Origin: a virus | IMG/VR virus record: IMGVR_UViG_3300031555_002240 | Direction: 5' to 3' (one strand) | DNA length: 20,646 nt | In this document: piece by piece, positions 11,213 to 15,560 of the stretch | Position numbering within the stretch: position 1 is the first letter of the stretch | Layout: every line of letters begins with the position of its first letter | Notes under the pieces: model-generated | Seen by the model: the letters and a program-made list of their open reading frames with translations, nothing else | Databases searched by the model: none | What the model was told of the DNA's origin: nothing | Translations under genes and position numbers: made by a program

Positions 11213-12052
11213 TTAAATAAAAATCAATTTATTTACATAATCTTTATCTTGCGTGAAAATAGGGATCTCAGTGTCAATTACCCACTTGTTACGAATTGCT
11301 TCCTGATCGGTGCCTTCATTAATCTTGAAAGGCTTCTTGACACAACAGCTGCCACGCTTTAGATGCGTCGGATAGTCATTCCAATTAATGTCCTTTTCTA
11401 GCATTAGCATATCCTGAATGTTGCTGCAGTTTTTGCCGTGTAGCTGGTTGTGAGAGAAGTTTGCCTGACCTACCATTTGAATGCTATTTCTAGTGGCATC
11501 AAGCTGTCTCCAATATAGAAGATTCATGACTTCTTCCTTAGGGATATTAAATACTCTGGCATCGAACATTGCACCTTTTTCACAAGCCTTAGTATAGGCA
11601 TTAAACAGCTTTTTGATATCTTCATCTGCTGAAACAACATCTGGATCGCTCCAATCAATGTTATTTTCAAACCATTGACAACATTCGTTTGCAAAAGACC
11701 TATTGAACGCCATAGTTGCCATAGAGGCAGCGATGCTACACATCTTCTGAACTTCATACTCAAACCACGCATCAGAATTTAGGTTCTTATAATCAACCAG
11801 AATTAAAGTAATTTCATCAGACTGGTGATAACCAAGAACACAGCCCTGAATATTTTCACAAAGATATTTCATGGTCGCTTGCATAGACTTAATTAGAACT
11901 TCATCAAAGGGCTTCTGGAAACCTTTAGTGAATGTATGAAATGCTTTGCCATCAATTCTAATTGCCACAGGCGTTCTACGCATTAACTTCGTCTTAGGAA
12001 TCTGCTCGTAATATGTTTTCATACGAATTCCCAATTCGTCATTTACTGGCAT
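11213..12052 (-). CDS. Thg1-like protein (tRNA-His guanylyltransferase family 3'-5' nucleotidyltransferase, TLP)
   Basis: VAIRIDGKAFHTF matches the Thg1 RxDGxxFH motif and QSDEITLIL matches the SDE motif. ATG 12052 is chosen over ATG 12106 because a GGAGG SD lies 8 nt upstream. Confidence 0.8.
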   Translation of the reverse strand: MPVNDELGIRMKTYYEQIPKTKLMRRTPVAIRIDGKAFHTFTKGFQKPFDEVLIKSMQATMKYLCENIQGCVLGYHQSDEITLILVDYKNLNSDAWFEYEVQKMCSIAASMATMAFNRSFANECCQWFENNIDWSDPDVVSADEDIKKLFNAYTKACEKGAMFDARVFNIPKEEVMNLLYWRQLDATRNSIQMVGQANFSHNQLHGKNCSNIQDMLMLEKDINWNDYPTHLKRGSCCVKKPFKINEGTDQEAIRNKWVIDTEIPIFTQDKDYVNKLIFI

Positions 12053-12068
12053 AATATTTGTCCTCCTT

Positions 12069-12935
12069 TTAATGCGCTTCCAAATCACATTCGTGCAACA
12101 AATCAATTTGCTTCTTGAGATAGATTGGAAGCTTGTTGTAATATTTAGTATTCATAAAAGGCCCCATATGATTTCCAACAAGCCATGCAATATGTACGTT
12201 ACTTGCGCCATATGCCATCCATGCACCTACATTATCGTGAGAATAAAAGTGAGCAATATCACTTGTGTTTCCTTTACTATCAATGAAGGCTTTTACATAA
12301 GGCTTGCCACAATCATGAATAAACGCAGCGCATTCAAGATCACTACCCATTTTACGATTTTCTGCAATTGTACATGCTTTGTCACAATGGTCATAAATTG
12401 AAAGAGAGTGGTGCGGATTGTCGTGTGGAATATTCATTGCATCAACAATTTGATGGCCATATTTTGCAATGTCAAAATACTTAGGTCTAACGATCTTGAT
12501 TTCATCAATACCCTCGTCGTACCATACAGGTTGAAACCGCTTCAACATCTTATCAATTACTTCCTTACCAACAGTGCGCTCTCTGTCAGCATCTCTTTCA
12601 ATGCAAGTCTCAATGGGTGCCCATACAATATGGCACTCAATCTTAGCAAACTTGGGACAAAGCGAAATAATGTAAGATCTATCCTTTCTGGTTACGTTCG
12701 TTGCGTCATACACGACACTCTGTCCGTCGTTTAGTGCATCAATAGCCCTAGACTGCATCAGAGAGAAAACCTCGTTGTTGTCGCCCTGAGTGGCCTCGTT
12801 GCCCCAAAGTTCTTCACGAATCTTGTCAGAGGAAAGATGTACTGCATTGGGATTCTCTTTAATATATTTTTCTGCGTATGTAGTTTTACCTGAGCCGGGA
12901 ATTCCGACAAGTAAAATTAAACTAGGTCTGTTCAT
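12069..12935 (-). CDS. Polynucleotide kinase-phosphatase analogue: N-terminal P-loop 5'-kinase plus C-terminal HD phosphohydrolase (HD-Pnk type RNA end-healing enzyme)
   Basis: The Walker A motif is LLVGIPGSGKTT. The Pnk-like kinase region is SDKIRE...VYDATN...RDR. The C-terminal HD motifs are HHSLSIYDHCDK, FIHDCGKP and NHMGPF. ATG 12935 has a GGTGA SD, and its start is 1 nt after the upstream stop. Confidence 0.75.
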   Translation of the reverse strand: MNRPSLILLVGIPGSGKTTYAEKYIKENPNAVHLSSDKIREELWGNEATQGDNNEVFSLMQSRAIDALNDGQSVVYDATNVTRKDRSYIISLCPKFAKIECHIVWAPIETCIERDADRERTVGKEVIDKMLKRFQPVWYDEGIDEIKIVRPKYFDIAKYGHQIVDAMNIPHDNPHHSLSIYDHCDKACTIAENRKMGSDLECAAFIHDCGKPYVKAFIDSKGNTSDIAHFYSHDNVGAWMAYGASNVHIAWLVGNHMGPFMNTKYYNKLPIYLKKQIDLLHECDLEAH

Positions 12936-12936
12936 T

Positions 12937-13746: not shown

Positions 13747-13761
13747 TCAATCACCTTCTTA

Positions 13762-14112
13762 TTACAATAATTTATATTTCAAAGCATCCTTCTCAAAGCG
13801 CTTCCAATCTTCTTTGCTGTAAGGGATGCTATTCTTTTTATTAAACGCATGAGTGAAACATCTATATAGTCCGTATTCTAAGTCCACACAATCTATGTGT
13901 TTATGAAAGTGTCCATCATAAGGCACATGGTTCTTATGAAAGAAAGTAAATCTATTAAATCTACTTCCATCCAAAAGGCTCACCTTAAACACATCGTTGT
14001 CGGAGTAGATAAATAAGATGTGACCTTGTACTTCATAGGAGCCACCATAAAGGTGTATGAGATAATTTAGAAAATATTTGTGATAATCATATAACATAGA
14101 TGTTTCACTCAC
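13762..14112 (-). CDS. Hypothetical protein (His and aromatic rich)
   Basis: The ORF lies between the RNA ligase and the nucleotidyltransferase. The start is uncertain: GTG at 14112 or ATG at 14097, both with weak SDs. Confidence 0.4.
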   Translation of the reverse strand: MSETSMLYDYHKYFLNYLIHLYGGSYEVQGHILFIYSDNDVFKVSLLDGSRFNRFTFFHKNHVPYDGHFHKHIDCVDLEYGLYRCFTHAFNKKNSIPYSKEDWKRFEKDALKYKLL

Positions 14113-14123
14113 TTTGTATTTAT

Positions 14124-15560
14124 TTATTCAGTTACTTCACCATCGGCCTCTTCCATATCAGGGGCCTCAGCTTCTACCTTTACAATGCCCTCAAGAGCCT
14201 TGAAAGACCAATTCTTATGCTTATAGGCACAGAACTTAGGACGGTTTAGAATGCGCACTACTACGCCTTCACGAACGTGGGTCTTGCCAATTGGATCGGG
14301 GCCATCATAGAATTCTTCAGCCTTATTCTTAATCCATTCTCCTGGGCCAGCTTCATGTCCACCACCAGGAATTTTACCCTTCCACATTACAGGCACAGTT
14401 TTTGCGCCCATTTGCTCACAACGATAACGCATAAAATCAGGAGTATATTCAACTACATCTCCGTCTTCGTTGGTCATAGTCATACGGTAAACGTAAATAT
14501 CAGACTGATTCTTGTCTAGAACAGCAGGAACACAACCAGGAGCGATATTTTCCCTCATACCGTTTGGATCACAACCATAAGAGAAAGTAGTAGTCTTACC
14601 ATACTGCTTAACAAACTCCTTGTCATTTAGCTTCTTGTTATCACAAGATGCCATAATGGGCGCACCAGTATGAGTGAAACCAACTACTTCGTAGTATACC
14701 TCTTCGCCCTTCCATAGCTTGCCCTCAAAGAACTTAGAATGTGCTTCACGGAACTCATTAGATCCATAATATCCACCTTCAAAATTCTCTAGAACAGTAC
14801 GACGAGTGCCAGAGACGTAACCCCAATCATAAATTGGTATAGCATGATTCATTGCCTGCTCATAAAGTTTCTGAGTAAATTTACCCATCTTCTTTGTGGG
14901 ATCTATGTTTTTAAGAACTCTATTCCACCAAGGATGATCAGAATAATAATCCTTAAACACGGGGAGATGCGCAGTTCGCTGAGAAGTGCCATGCATCTTT
15001 AGAGTAATCTCAATCTCGTCACCGGGCTTAAATGCTGCTAGATTGTAAGCAAGCTGTTCAGTGTCCATGTGCTCATAAAATAGAGGTGCAATGCTTCTCT
15101 TAGCTCTACGCTTAATACGCTTGCCTGCTCCACCTGCGGCAGTACGTTCACGCTTAAAAGGTACATACTTGCAGCAAATCTCATGACCATTGAAGTTATC
15201 AATTCTATCACCCTCACGCAGAGTGGTAATGTCACCAAAAGGCTCAAGAGACTTAAGAGGCAGGAACAGGCCATCAGACTTTTCTCCACGAAGCTTAATA
15301 GCAGTGACGTTGCGCTTGTCGGGATCCATGTAACCGCCAATGTTATTGCCGTTTTCATCCTTCTTGCGAAGCAGATTATTTGCTTCTGCAAATGCAGTGC
15401 TAATCTGTCCATCAGAAGGGAAGTAAATGCCAAGCTGGTTGTCCTCATATTCCAGAGAGACAATTACAGTGTTACCAAAACACTCACCAATCTGCAGCCT
15501 ATCTGCATTAGGAAGACGGCGCAGATTCTTAATTCTTGTAATAAATGCTGTGTAAGCCAT
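14124..15560 (-). CDS. ATP-dependent RNA ligase (Rnl2/Rnl5-like nucleotidyltransferase with an N-terminal extension)
   Basis: The covalent nucleotidyltransferase motifs are present: I KMHGTS (KxHG), III YYEVVGF, IV REGVVVR and V KHK. The N-terminal domain of about 180 aa resembles the arrangement in Rnl5-type ligases. An AAAGGA SD lies 8 nt before ATG 15560. Confidence 0.75.
   Translation of the reverse strand: MAYTAFITRIKNLRRLPNADRLQIGECFGNTVIVSLEYEDNQLGIYFPSDGQISTAFAEANNLLRKKDENGNNIGGYMDPDKRNVTAIKLRGEKSDGLFLPLKSLEPFGDITTLREGDRIDNFNGHEICCKYVPFKRERTAAGGAGKRIKRRAKRSIAPLFYEHMDTEQLAYNLAAFKPGDEIEITLKMHGTSQRTAHLPVFKDYYSDHPWWNRVLKNIDPTKKMGKFTQKLYEQAMNHAIPIYDWGYVSGTRRTVLENFEGGYYGSNEFREAHSKFFEGKLWKGEEVYYEVVGFTHTGAPIMASCDNKKLNDKEFVKQYGKTTTFSYGCDPNGMRENIAPGCVPAVLDKNQSDIYVYRMTMTNEDGDVVEYTPDFMRYRCEQMGAKTVPVMWKGKIPGGGHEAGPGEWIKNKAEEFYDGPDPIGKTHVREGVVVRILNRPKFCAYKHKNWSFKALEGIVKVEAEAPDMEEADGEVTE

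Follow-up and report, generated by a model that had tools for sequence, protein, structure and literature searches.

Which functions are encoded by the closely spaced minus-strand genes of this viral DNA, and do they form a single pathway? We analysed the window, i.e. the whole stretch of 20,646 nucleotides, together with related phage loci. All five ORFs of the original prediction were found on the minus strand (Table 1), and every domain call was upheld by profile searches, matches in structure databases or profile-profile alignment. Positions 15816-11213 (minus strand) likely form a six-gene phage operon that heals and seals broken RNA, the likeliest substrates being tRNAs that host ribotoxins or nucleases of abortive infection have cleaved. 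The enzymatic activities, the substrate and the counter-defence role are all predicted from sequence.

Table 1. Features of the cassette and its surroundings, in window coordinates.
Feature	Position	Strand	Remarks
PARP-catalytic-domain protein	4468-5703	-	PARP 3.9e-23; 411 aa
Macro-domain protein	5704-6129	-	Macro 3.6e-4
Major vault protein (MVP) homologue	8032..10419	-	MVP_shoulder 4e-23, Vault_3, Band_7
MVP's own perfect promoter	10473-10500
Sigma-70-type promoter, perfect	11177..11204	-	12/12, extended -10; starts 8 nt past TLP stop
Predicted RNA-repair cassette	11213-15560	-	five closely spaced genes
Bacterial-type Thg1-like protein (TLP), predicted 3'-5' nucleotidyltransferase	11213..12052	-	ORF 11213-12106; last operon gene
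P-loop polynucleotide 5'-kinase (N-terminal) + HD phosphoesterase (C-terminal)	12069..12935	-	ORF 12069-12965; AAA_33, HD
RlaP-family (RNA ligase-associated Pol-beta) nucleotidyltransferase	12937..13746	-	PF10127, PHROG 388, subfamily hhalign
Conserved 111-aa protein	13762..14097	-	ORF 13762-14112; always 3' of ligase gene
ATP-dependent RNA ligase, DraRnl/Rnl5 architecture	14124..15560	-	PHROG 968, PF21189, PF09414, TIGR02306 matches
Small Cys-rich ORF	15579..15758	-	59 aa from ATG behind GGAGG site; first gene of predicted operon
Putative promoter 5' of cassette	15789..15816	-	TTGATT-N16-TATATT with TG

Organisation of the cassette

The five genes had been described as consecutive and translationally coupled. 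The tight packing holds, but strict coupling does not. For three genes the likely start is an internal ATG preceded by a good Shine-Dalgarno site (12052 for the TLP, 12935 for the kinase-HD protein, 14097 for the 111-aa protein). With these starts there is no overlap between genes; gaps of 1-26 nt lie between them, and they have their own ribosome-binding sites.

The transcription unit probably includes a sixth gene, the small Cys-rich ORF behind the promoter-like site. This ORF is also called as a gene of 59 aa in the JGI record and had no match in Pfam. The promoter motif TTGACA-N11-TATGATATAAT has four matches in the window, all on the minus strand, with 0.27 expected, and copies are found on both sides of the cassette. 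The upstream copy, with three mismatches, is the weakest of the four. The perfect downstream copy delimits the cassette on its 3' side and, as the next consensus promoter, leads to the prediction of a six-gene operon. No terminator-like site was found on the coding strand within the cassette, and neither tRNA genes nor known ncRNAs were found in the window.

Component proteins

The ligase motifs named originally are all present (K188-MHGTS, E431-GVVVR, K447-H-K449), as is E291, and motifs I (K188), III (E291), IV (E431-R436) and V (K447/K449) are invariant in the alignment of homologues. The protein consists of an N-terminal OB module (PF21189, residues 6-102) and a C-terminal adenylyltransferase domain (PF09414, a weak match), with three hypervariable insertions and no C-terminal appendage. 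It matches PHROG 968 'RNA ligase' (2e-61) and the DraRnl model TIGR02306 (9e-13, from the OB module through motif I). Its scores are below the curated cutoffs of PF09414, PF21189 and TIGR02306, and the nucleotidyltransferase is below its own cutoff; family membership of both rests on profile-profile and subfamily evidence. For the ligase this is an hhalign match to a group of paralogous ligases that reaches the cutoffs of PF21189 and PF09414 (98.3%, E 2.6e-14, 318 columns). A phmmer comparison of the window ligase with NgrRnl or DraRnl gave no match, and structure prediction yielded no usable model of it (pLDDT 38). Deinococcus radiodurans DraRnl and Naegleria NgrRnl, both of the Rnl5 clade, share the order of an OB-like module and adenylyltransferase without a C-terminal domain. 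However, they are about 340 aa long, whereas the window ligase has 478 aa, with its variable insertions, and scores under the family cutoff. Rnl5-type ligases favour nicked duplexes over anticodon loops. DraRnl seals nicks with RNA as the 3'-OH strand (PMC1807946).

The 59-aa and 111-aa proteins, encoded respectively 5' and 3' of the ligase, probably serve the ligase as cofactors or specificity factors. The latter, the small unknown protein of the original prediction, matched no family in the domain search; its fold is alpha+beta, and residues H59, H70, C75, C85 and H88 (numbering of the 116-aa ORF) are invariant.

The next product had been called a minimal nucleotidyltransferase. The GS...D.D signature is indeed present, and G36-S37, D48 and D50 (D48-x-D50), D82 and D85 are invariant in the alignment of homologues, but 'minimal' has to be corrected to an enzyme of the RlaP family. 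The protein itself matches PF10127 at 1e-3 (19.3 bits, under the cutoff of 23) and the PHROG 388 nucleotidyltransferase at 1e-17. Within its subfamily PF10127 is the most frequent family (7 of 10 members, best 1.8e-6), and hhalign aligns it with a bona fide RlaP subfamily (95.9%, E 5.9e-9). According to PMC12776372, RlaP adds one or two nucleotides to the 3'-OH of damaged RNA, aminoacylation of over-damaged tRNA is restored, and Pseudomonas RlaP is proposed to replace nucleotides lost to 'smart' ribotoxins such as RloC. The same paper places it in RtcB-RlaP-RtcA operons, thus within an RNA ligase operon as in the window. However, RtcB joins 3'-phosphate ends, whereas the window ligase is of the Rnl5 type, and the window RlaP belongs to a divergent 269-aa subfamily with a marginal PF10127 match.

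The fusion of a P-loop kinase with an HD domain was confirmed (AAA_33, 1.6e-27; HD, 2.4e-6; TIGR04075 bacterial Pnkp kinase region, 2.5e-18). In the PDB, the sequences that match best belong to kinases of RNA repair, namely Pnkp1 (4xrp, 5.5e-10) and the kinase of CthPnkp (4gp7). The active-site residues are intact (P-loop S15-G16-K17; H176, H183, H207-D208, H233, H256, D284), and the kinase and HD metal-ligand residues are invariant across 13 homologues. A bifunctional end-healing enzyme is therefore predicted. The HD-Pnk, ligase and Tpt1 cluster of Runella slithyformis likewise has an HD 2',3'-phosphoesterase fused to a 5'-OH kinase and an adjoining ATP-dependent ligase, which sealed none of the substrates tried (PMC6097658). 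Its domain order is HD-kinase, shared by the huge phage LR756500, and not kinase-HD as in the window; its NAD/ADP-ribose link is Tpt1 instead of PARP and Macro; and, unlike the window, it has neither RlaP nor TLP.

The Runella HD-Pnk has been described as a DNA/RNA end-healing enzyme, and DraRnl-type ligases tolerate DNA on the other side of a nick whose 3'-OH strand is RNA (PMC1807946). The region also contains genes for an NAD-dependent DNA ligase, a RecJ-like exonuclease and a dCMP deaminase, and a primase-like gene. The cassette might thus act on DNA or RNA-DNA junctions in phage replication and recombination, such as dirty ends, RNA-primed nicks and Okazaki-type junctions. However, this seems very unlikely. 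The phage encodes that separate DNA ligase, RNA was the only cellular macromolecule that RlaP accepted (PMC12776372), TLP substrates are RNA 5' ends, and other genomes repeatedly link the same gene set to RNA-repair components.

The last gene encodes the expected Thg1-like protein (PF04446 Thg1, 9.8e-30; PHROG 4717, 7e-94). The catalytic carboxylates on which the original prediction hinged, D34 and D79-E80, are intact (R32-I-D34-G, S78-D79-E80), and these motifs, like those of the other enzymes, vary little or not at all among aligned homologues. The closest solved relative is the Bacillus thuringiensis TLP (PDB 4kgk, 1.2e-64), as against 1e-7 to 1e-9 for eukaryotic Thg1. It shares the catalytic residues and differs from the window TLP in the hypervariable insertion of about 40 aa (residues 120-160) and a second variable loop of the latter. 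TLPs add templated nucleotides to 5'-truncated tRNA, that is, repair it (PMC4820378).

Proposed repair pathway and its conservation

The domain identities, intact motifs and knowledge of the families support the reading as an extended RNA-repair toolkit and suggest the following scheme. A host nuclease would leave 2',3'-cyclic-phosphate or 3'-phosphate and 5'-OH ends, at times with the loss of one or more nucleotides. The HD domain would strip the 2',3' or 3' phosphate and the P-loop kinase domain phosphorylate the 5'-OH. RlaP may then put back one or two nucleotides at the 3'-OH. Where a pairing strand extends beyond the broken 5' end, for example in the acceptor or another stem, the TLP would activate the 5'-phosphate and add Watson-Crick-templated nucleotides in the 3'-5' direction. 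Finally, the Rnl5-type ligase would seal the 3'-OH/5'-phosphate nick in a duplex-like context. This putative logic matches known features of each enzyme family. Weighing against it are the preference of Rnl5-type ligases for nicked duplexes, the inactivity of the Runella ligase on the substrates tried, the family scores below cutoff, the lack of tRNA genes and known ncRNAs in the window, the weak upstream promoter and the frequent occurrence of the TLP away from repair genes.

RNA-repair systems, including the phage complement, were reportedly covered by Burroughs and Aravind in 2016. The combination had been thought uncharacterised in phage, which holds for experiments, as no biochemical study of the phage version was found in the literature, but not as novelty. 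Operons of Thg1, polynucleotide kinase and RNA ligase, also with Macro, were reported in 2010 and predicted to function in RNA repair (PMC2904730), and RlaP and Thg1 were named among phage RNA-repair enzymes in 2021 (PMC7824862). These comparative-genomic predictions by the Aravind group have the same component families, with a Macro protein nearby, and the same inferred logic: the kinase supplies the 5'-phosphate for Thg1 and ligase, RlaP goes with ligases, and 5' nucleotides are replaced by Thg1. Thg1 is described there as only sporadic in jumbo phages, whereas the window, from a lineage of gut phages of 100-200 kb, packs five enzyme functions into a single predicted operon, with two conserved small partners, in-place ligase replacement and an adjoining MVP homologue. 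Phage T4 uses a similar heal-and-seal pair, Pnkp (5' kinase, 3' phosphatase) and the ATP-dependent RNA ligase Rnl1, against the anticodon nuclease PrrC. However, its phosphatase is a DxD acyl-phosphatase and not an HD domain, its ligase has a C-terminal tRNA-specificity domain in place of the Rnl5 architecture, its repair genes are not in one operon, and it has no Thg1-like enzyme.

Related gut phages (loci L006, L046, L074, L085-L092) have the same gene order, namely small ORF, ligase, 111-aa protein, RlaP and kinase-HD, with the TLP adjacent to this core or within about 4 kb. The 59-aa ORF is kept immediately 5' of the ligase in L004, L006, L021 and L085-L092. The closest relatives (L004, L010 and L021 among them) have RlaP 83-94% and kinase-HD 68-72% identical to those of the window, but lack the window-type ligase. 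In L004 its slot is occupied by a paralogue of the same architecture with 22% pairwise identity, and one replacement paralogue carries an intein. Conservation of this core while the ligase is replaced by distant paralogues is a new observation, and it suggests an arms-race module.

The TLP is tied to the other four genes more loosely than these are to each other. It adjoins them in close relatives only and, in the wider phage family, mostly occurs without them, being a conserved anchor with highly variable neighbours across 424 related viral contigs. Repair genes lie within 10 kb of it in 32 of 80 related phage loci. In the remaining 48 none was recognisable, and thus the TLP may have an independent job. 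Among 80 bacterial or MAG loci, 36 have the TLP at most 3 kb from a gene for a phosphoesterase, kinase-HD, RlaP or ligase. One possibility is that the TLP serves in the maturation or proof-reading of tRNA 5' ends, such as G-1 addition to tRNA-His or the correction of phage-encoded tRNAs, outside the repair pathway, and adjoins the cassette only because genes of RNA metabolism cluster in this part of the genome. Indeed, the Thg1 homologues of 161 phage records in GenBank are routinely annotated as tRNA-His guanylyltransferase, tRNA genes are close to the TLP in some relatives, and it changes place with respect to the other four genes from one relative to another. We nevertheless regard this as unlikely. 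The protein is far nearer to the repair-type Bacillus TLP than to eukaryotic Thg1, bacterial tRNA-His normally gains G-1 via transcription (PMC2995067), and no tRNA-His gene was present in 60 scanned loci. Recognisable TLP neighbours, where present, are end-healing enzymes, RlaP and ligases, and the polynucleotide kinase that would make its 5'-phosphate is encoded by the gene just before it, an arrangement shared with the bacterial operons of PMC2904730.

The vault protein neighbourhood

An interesting aspect of the cassette is its link to a vault protein. The MVP homologue is full-length, with repeat, shoulder/Band_7 and coiled-coil regions, and it is probably functionally associated with the repair genes. 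RNA-repair genes lie no more than 10 kb from MVP in 44 of 49 phage loci, with 28 loci having a ligase, 25 RlaP, 24 kinase-HD and 14 a TLP; in 33 loci the distance is 3 kb or less. This neighbourhood is new here; it was outside the scope of a preprint on phage MVPs, which reported no vPARP in its two phages (bioRxiv 10.1101/2023.11.10.566534).

The repair genes may accordingly be one arm of a larger MVP-centred module, in which an MVP cage or scaffold concentrates the ligase, kinase-HD, RlaP, TLP and perhaps PARP/Macro, so that RNA repair or another RNA-end transaction would occur on or in a vault-like particle. We propose this tentatively; it extends the RNA-repair operon explanation and does not exclude it. 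The association holds across differing gene orders and ligase types, a Band_7/SPFH protein adjoins the cassette in relatives without MVP, and the 20 kb searched around each MVP gene amount to only about 10-20% of such a genome of 100-200 kb. On the other hand, MVP is transcribed from a strong promoter of its own, a cell-wall-hydrolase-like gene lies between it and the cassette, the count of loci is inflated by shared ancestry, and the MVP of the 735-kb phage LR756501 has no nearby repair gene. Physical interaction with the repair proteins is hypothetical.

The PARP and Macro genes share one long transcription unit with MVP and could provide NAD-linked accessory functions. The eukaryotic vault particle (MVP, PARP4, TEP1 and vault RNA) also combines MVP with a PARP-domain protein, their genes being 2.3 kb apart in the window. 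However, the window PARP is a short protein and not PARP4, no TEP1/TROVE homologue or vault-like RNA was detected in the window, and PARP and Macro are near MVP in none of the 49 IMG/VR loci. In favour of the module, a 12-kb stretch of the unrelated 462-kb phage LR756500 has genes for RNA ligase, HD-kinase and MVP flanked by PARP and Macro genes, all on the same strand, and its PARP is of the same family as that of the window (37% identity, 4e-73).

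Organisation and transcription of the cassette

The interval originally assigned to the cassette, 11213-15560, contains exactly five consecutive ORFs on the minus strand, as do all the substantial ORFs found in the window (20.6 kb) lie on it. An alternative genetic code was rejected, because in translation table 11 the ORFs are long and unbroken. The likely ATG starts, each preceded by a Shine-Dalgarno site, leave intergenic gaps of 1-26 nt and no overlaps. The original prediction had described the genes as translationally coupled. They are closely packed, but strict coupling by overlap was rejected, because overlaps appear only if upstream TTG starts lacking ribosome-binding sites are used.

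Four copies of the candidate promoter motif TTGACA-N11-TATGATATAAT are present in the window, where 0.27 would be expected, and each of them is on the minus strand. Two copies flank a group of six genes, namely a small Cys-rich ORF and the five genes of the cassette, and no terminator-like site was found on the coding strand between the copies at 15816 and 11204. Therefore we predict a six-gene transcription unit. The four copies further imply one long downstream unit running from the gene that encodes the major vault protein (MVP) homologue to the NAD-dependent DNA ligase gene.

Features of the cassette and its surroundings in the window
Feature	Coordinates	Strand	Matches and remarks
Promoter motif, weaker copy	15789-15816	-	upstream of the cassette
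Cys-rich ORF, 59 aa	15579-15758		between the promoter copies at 15816 and 11204, with the five cassette genes
RNA ligase, 478 aa	14124-15560	-	PHROG 968 'RNA ligase' 2e-61; PF21189; PF09414 weak; TIGR02306 9.4e-13
111-aa protein ORF	13762-14112	-	no family in Pfam, PHROGs or NCBIfam
RlaP, 269 aa	12937-13746	-	PF10127 1e-3, 19.3 bits; PHROG 388 nucleotidyltransferase 1e-17
Kinase-HD	12069-12965	-	AAA_33 1.6e-27; HD 2.4e-6
Thg1-like protein (TLP)	11213-12106	-	PF04446 Thg1 9.8e-30; PHROG 4717 7e-94
Promoter motif, perfect copy	11177-11204	-	just past the TLP stop
Promoter motif, perfect copy	10473-10500	-	ahead of the MVP gene
Implied long unit	10419-175	-	MVP, RecJ-like, Macro, PARP, 183-aa ORF, YqeY, bactofilin-like ORF, Cys-rich 304-aa ORF, LigA
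MVP homologue, 795 aa	8032-10419	-	MVP_shoulder 4.4e-23; Vault_3 6e-8; Band_7 5.7e-5; own promoter 10473-10500
PARP-catalytic-domain and Macro-domain proteins	4468-6129	-	2-4 kb downstream of MVP
Promoter motif, 2 mismatches	105-132	-	just downstream of the DNA ligase gene
262-aa protein	16385-17173	-	PHROG 5889
Radical-SAM-like protein	17338-18231		CxxxCxxC
Two paralogues	18242-18613, 18626-19282	-	shared N-terminal motif I-R-x-G-V-F-E-T-N-S-S-S-x-H-S-I

Synteny mapping over related loci fetched for comparison (L-numbers) defines a conserved core of the small ORF, the ligase, the 111-aa protein, RlaP and kinase-HD. The position of the TLP is less fixed: it is the last gene of the operon in the window, L004, L006 and L085, separates the 111-aa gene from RlaP in L046 and L074, and is found 3-4 kb downstream in L087-L092. 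The ligase and RlaP are separated by the 111-aa gene alone in the window, L046, L085-L090 and L092; in L074 the TLP sits there too. No near-identical match to the cassette DNA was found in GenBank phages. The window is itself a contig of a JGI metagenome, and an exact duplicate of its ligase, with the same neighbour genes, is present on a second contig (JGI sample 3300029305).

Two other groups of genes were observed upstream of the cassette. The 262-aa protein, with an HD-like H...HD...H...D pattern seen by eye and a C-terminal ExoX-like_C motif, is encoded upstream of the cassette in many relatives as well. The two paralogues adjoin the radical-SAM-like gene and move with it as a block, which in L087-L092 lies between kinase-HD and the TLP.

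Protein families and conserved residues

The RNA ligase has the layout of the Rnl5 family: an OB-like module at the N-terminus, then the adenylyltransferase domain, and no further domain at the C-terminus, where about 30 residues remain after motif V. The PHA02142 OB domain (PF21189) covers residues 6-102, and positions 5-174 of TIGR02306, the NCBIfam model built on Deinococcus DRB0094 (DraRnl), align with residues 7-196, from the OB module through motif I. All covalent nucleotidyltransferase motifs (I, III, IIIa, IV and V), including the motif I lysine, are present. In eight homologues with 42-89% identity K188, E291, Y356-x-Y358, E431-G-x-V-V-R436 and K447-x-K449 are invariant. The scores are below the curated cutoffs (TIGR02306 47.7 bits against the equivalog cutoff of 151; PF21189 23.9 and PF09414 21.4 bits, both against 27), as in a divergent relative, and we thus assign the protein to the Rnl5-type architecture and not to the orthologues of DraRnl. 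A second ligase group from related phages passes both PF21189 (5e-21) and PF09414 (6e-17), and aligns with the window ligase in hhalign (98.3%, E 2.6e-14, 318 columns) with motifs I and IV in register. The AlphaFold2 model, built with 26 close homologues, had a mean pLDDT of 38, too low for a fold search, and no significant match was found among PDB chains by sequence. The family comprises at least 8000 sequence clusters in metagenomes, and this type of ligase occurs in 379 records of GenBank phages.

The kinase-HD protein combines a P-loop polynucleotide kinase domain with an HD domain predicted to be a phosphoesterase. The kinase residues G11..S15-G16-K17, S36-D37, R40, D77, R86 and R118 are conserved in the homologue alignment, the Pnkp kinase region model TIGR04075 matches at 2.5e-18, and in the PDB it matches RNA-repair kinases best, namely Pnkp1 (4xrp) and the kinase domain of Clostridium thermocellum CthPnkp (4gp7). 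The P-loop, the catalytic Asp that follows the P-loop helix, the arginines that bind phosphate and the closest relatives place it among the RNA-repair polynucleotide 5'-kinases (the clade of T4 Pnk, CthPnkp and Pnkp1). The HD domain scores 28.3 bits with PF01966 (cutoff 22), and its metal ligands H176, H183, H207-D208, H233, H256 and D284 are shared by all 13 homologues.

The RlaP protein (RNA ligase-associated Pol-beta nucleotidyltransferase) falls short of the gathering score of PF10127, which is 23 bits. This family is nevertheless the one most often matched by its subfamily (seven of ten members, best 1.8e-6), and a profile-profile comparison with a clear RlaP subfamily (69.6 bits) gave 95.9% and E 5.9e-9. 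The Pol-beta signature (G36, S37, D48, D50, D82/D85) is invariant in ten sequences. No significant match was found among PDB chains by sequence. A homologue with 34% identity (L084, 10007-10831) heads an array of more than 20 tRNA genes in Phage Phass-1 (OQ749652), a recoded ('code 15') gut phage.

The TLP scores 103.6 bits with PF04446 against the curated cutoff of 29.2. Its closest solved relative is the Bacillus thuringiensis TLP 4kgk (1.2e-64), with which the palm carboxylates D34, D79 and E80 align; yeast, Candida and human Thg1 follow at 2.4e-7 to 7.8e-9. Judged from these E-values, the protein is assigned to the bacterial TLP branch and not to that of the tRNA-His-specific Thg1 of eukaryotes. 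Among the relatives E80 never varies, and 12 of 13 keep D34 and D79. In one TLP (L065, 10001-10885) both catalytic aspartates are replaced by Asn (RINGK, QSNE); this copy may have been inactivated or may be a sequencing variant. The TLP gene of the close relative L085 (10699-11571) was called as two ORFs of 126 and 145 aa, although tblastn aligns it over its full length; a pseudogene, a frameshift or an assembly error may be the cause.

The motifs quoted in the original prediction were all recovered and are conserved in homologues: KMHGTS (K188), EGVVVR and KHK in the ligase, GS...D.D in RlaP (G36-S37 and D48-x-D50), R32-I-D34-G and S78-D79-E80 in the TLP. Both halves of the proposed kinase and HD fusion are matched as well, with their residues conserved. 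The loss of the Thg1 catalytic Asp/Glu residues, named there as an argument against the prediction, was not observed on alignment, where the carboxylates are intact.

The 111-aa protein forms 47 sequence clusters and has no known domain. Its AlphaFold2 model is confident (pLDDT 84), and the structure search gave no informative neighbour. Five invariant His/Cys residues suggest a putative metal site. In the window, L046 and each of the eight loci retrieved by way of this protein (L085-L092), its gene lies directly 3' of the ligase gene. L146 contains a weak match (29%) about 3 kb from a ligase match. The preceding ligase may be of the window type (478 aa), of a type with 405 aa or of one with 785 aa that contains an intein and a LAGLIDADG endonuclease. 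The last type was observed in L087-L091 (about 5617-7974) and L092 (4895-7252), with precomputed Pfam matches to PHA02142, Intein_splicing, LAGLIDADG_2 and RNA_ligase.

The closest relatives, L004, L010 and L021 among them, share 83-94% identity with the window in RlaP and 68-72% in kinase-HD, and lack the 478-aa ligase. The ligase slot of L004 (6149-7324) encodes a 391-aa paralogue with the same OB and ligase architecture and 22% pairwise identity, which by sequence comparison represents an in-place gene replacement. The same has probably occurred in the gap upstream of RlaP in L010 and L021.

Candidate RNA repair pathway

The matched domains and conserved catalytic residues support the original reading of the cassette as an RNA repair system. 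We infer all activities and the substrate, and consider it likely that the proteins form a pathway that heals, rebuilds and seals broken RNA. The HD domain would strip 2',3'-cyclic or 3' phosphates and the kinase would phosphorylate the 5'-OH, for which the HD-Pnk of Runella is a precedent of end healing (PMC6097658). RlaP would then add one or two nucleotides to the 3'-OH, an activity described for RlaP (PMC12776372), whereas the TLP would add templated nucleotides to a recessed 5'-phosphate end, as TLPs do (PMC4820378). Finally, the Rnl5-type ligase would seal the nick with an RNA 3'-OH strand; nick sealing by such a ligase has been described if the 3'-OH strand is RNA (PMC1807946). The same set of enzymes could be read as serving the processing of DNA/RNA junctions in replication, which we consider very improbable.

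The likeness to characterised systems is incomplete. Runella HD-Pnk has an N-terminal HD domain and a C-terminal kinase, whereas in the window protein the order is reversed; by analogy it would work like HD-Pnk, yet it is a different fusion. Repair of tRNA by the T4 Pnkp/Rnl1 pair depends on Rnl1 and a DxD acyl-phosphatase, whereas the cassette has a ligase with an N-terminal OB module and an HD phosphatase, and can be compared with the T4 system by functional analogy only.

The TLP might have a separate job in tRNA maturation. ARAGORN found no tRNA-His in the window and 60 related loci (+/-10 kb per genome), which speaks against this alternative without being decisive at that scope, and we regard it as unlikely. 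TLP relatives number 424 in IMG/VR, where their contigs measure about 60-200 kb; GenBank phages have 161 records with a Thg1 homologue, and the matches in the genome collection are mostly to gut Clostridia MAGs and isolates. Another recognisable repair gene lies within 10 kb in 32 of 80 loci of the wider TLP family and within 3 kb in 23. At the genome-collection TLP loci one was found within 3 kb in 36 of 80, most often a calcineurin-like phosphoesterase. In 25 of these 80 (gut Clostridia MAG and phage contigs) the latter is directly 3' of the TLP, e.g. at L158 2428, L161 8898, L169 1044 and L182 9008. This arrangement suggests a minimal pair of a TLP and an end-healing enzyme.

The combination had been thought uncharacterised in phages. 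This overstates its novelty, as it had already been predicted, and as a type the cassette is ordinary. In bacterial operons Thg1 is associated most persistently with polynucleotide kinase, and also with Macro proteins and RNA ligases, and RNA repair was proposed for such operons, including those of large DNA viruses (Anantharaman, Iyer, Aravind 2010, PMC2904730). The RNA repair complement of jumbo phages was described as ATP-grasp RNA ligases, kinases, phosphoesterases, RlaP and Thg1 (Iyer et al. 2021, PMC7824862). We found no paper with experimental characterisation of a phage TLP or of the cassette operon. In GenBank phages, the ligase adjoins kinase-HD in Bacillus Tsamsa-like phages, and ligase, RlaP and kinase-HD are consecutive in Lysinibacillus phage LC76P1.

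If the operon does heal, rebuild and seal RNA as proposed, no RNA repair kit more complete than this would have been seen in a single phage operon: it would clean both ends, restore missing nucleotides on both sides of the break and then seal it. Such a pathway would account for the survival of large gut phages under attack by ribotoxins that defeat simple heal-and-seal repair by removing nucleotides, and would give a phage Thg1-like enzyme its first biological role. As a compact and abundant set of enzymes, the operon is a good target for experiment.

Linkage with the major vault protein

Two genes downstream of the cassette there is a full-length homologue of the eukaryotic MVP, in which the MVP repeat, shoulder and cap-helix regions are recognised by the matches to Vault_3, MVP_shoulder and Band_7 and by a long charged, coiled-coil-like stretch at the C-terminus. 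Downstream in the same predicted long transcription unit are the genes of a RecJ-like exonuclease, a Macro protein and a protein with the PARP catalytic domain. No Pfam match to TROVE/TEP1 was found among the 19 proteins of the window that were scanned. In the window Rfam gave no family at the gathering score, and thus no vault-like RNA or ncRNA partner, and ARAGORN no tRNA-like gene.

A search anchored on MVP yielded 49 phage loci in IMG/VR. At least one RNA-repair gene lies within 10 kb on the same strand in 44 of them (within 3 kb in 33), a share well in excess of the 10-20% that a 20-kb window would be expected to give in a genome of 100-200 kb, with the counts inflated by shared descent. 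The ligase was found at 28 loci, RlaP at 25, kinase-HD at 24 and the TLP at 14, in varying gene orders and with varying ligase types; a phosphoesterase is also among the repair genes near phage MVP. No PARP or Macro gene was observed within 10 kb of MVP at any of the 49 loci. The 462-kb huge phage LR756500 (L143, 7517-19459) encodes a PARP, 37% identical to that of the window and of the same family, together with an RNA ligase, an HD-kinase, MVP and a Macro protein, on the same strand within 12 kb. The 735-kb phage LR756501 has MVP, and no neighbours of this kind were found.

The cassette could be one arm of a larger module centred on MVP. This is compatible with the pathway described here and is a fair possibility, if short of probable. 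More tentatively still, MVP homologues might build a vault-like cage or scaffold functionally coupled to the repair toolkit (Rnl5-type ligase, kinase-HD, RlaP, TLP) and, in some phages, to PARP/Macro. Such a structure would be a counterpart, in viruses of prokaryotes, of the eukaryotic vault with its MVP, PARP4, RNA-binding TEP1 and small RNA, and possibly a relative of the vault ancestor. If so, the original job of vaults would have been the surveillance or repair of RNA ends in host-virus conflict.

Phage MVPs have been noted once before, in two gut phages, with no vPARP reported in them (bioRxiv 10.1101/2023.11.10.566534); we found no report of their linkage with RNA-repair genes in the literature searched. 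The recurrent linkage is a testable handle on the unexplained function of the vault protein and a lead that deserves its own follow-up. In relatives without MVP, a Band_7/SPFH protein is often encoded beside the cassette. Scaffolds of the SPFH/Band-7 type were reportedly discussed by Burroughs and Aravind in 2016, who are also said to have named RlaP.
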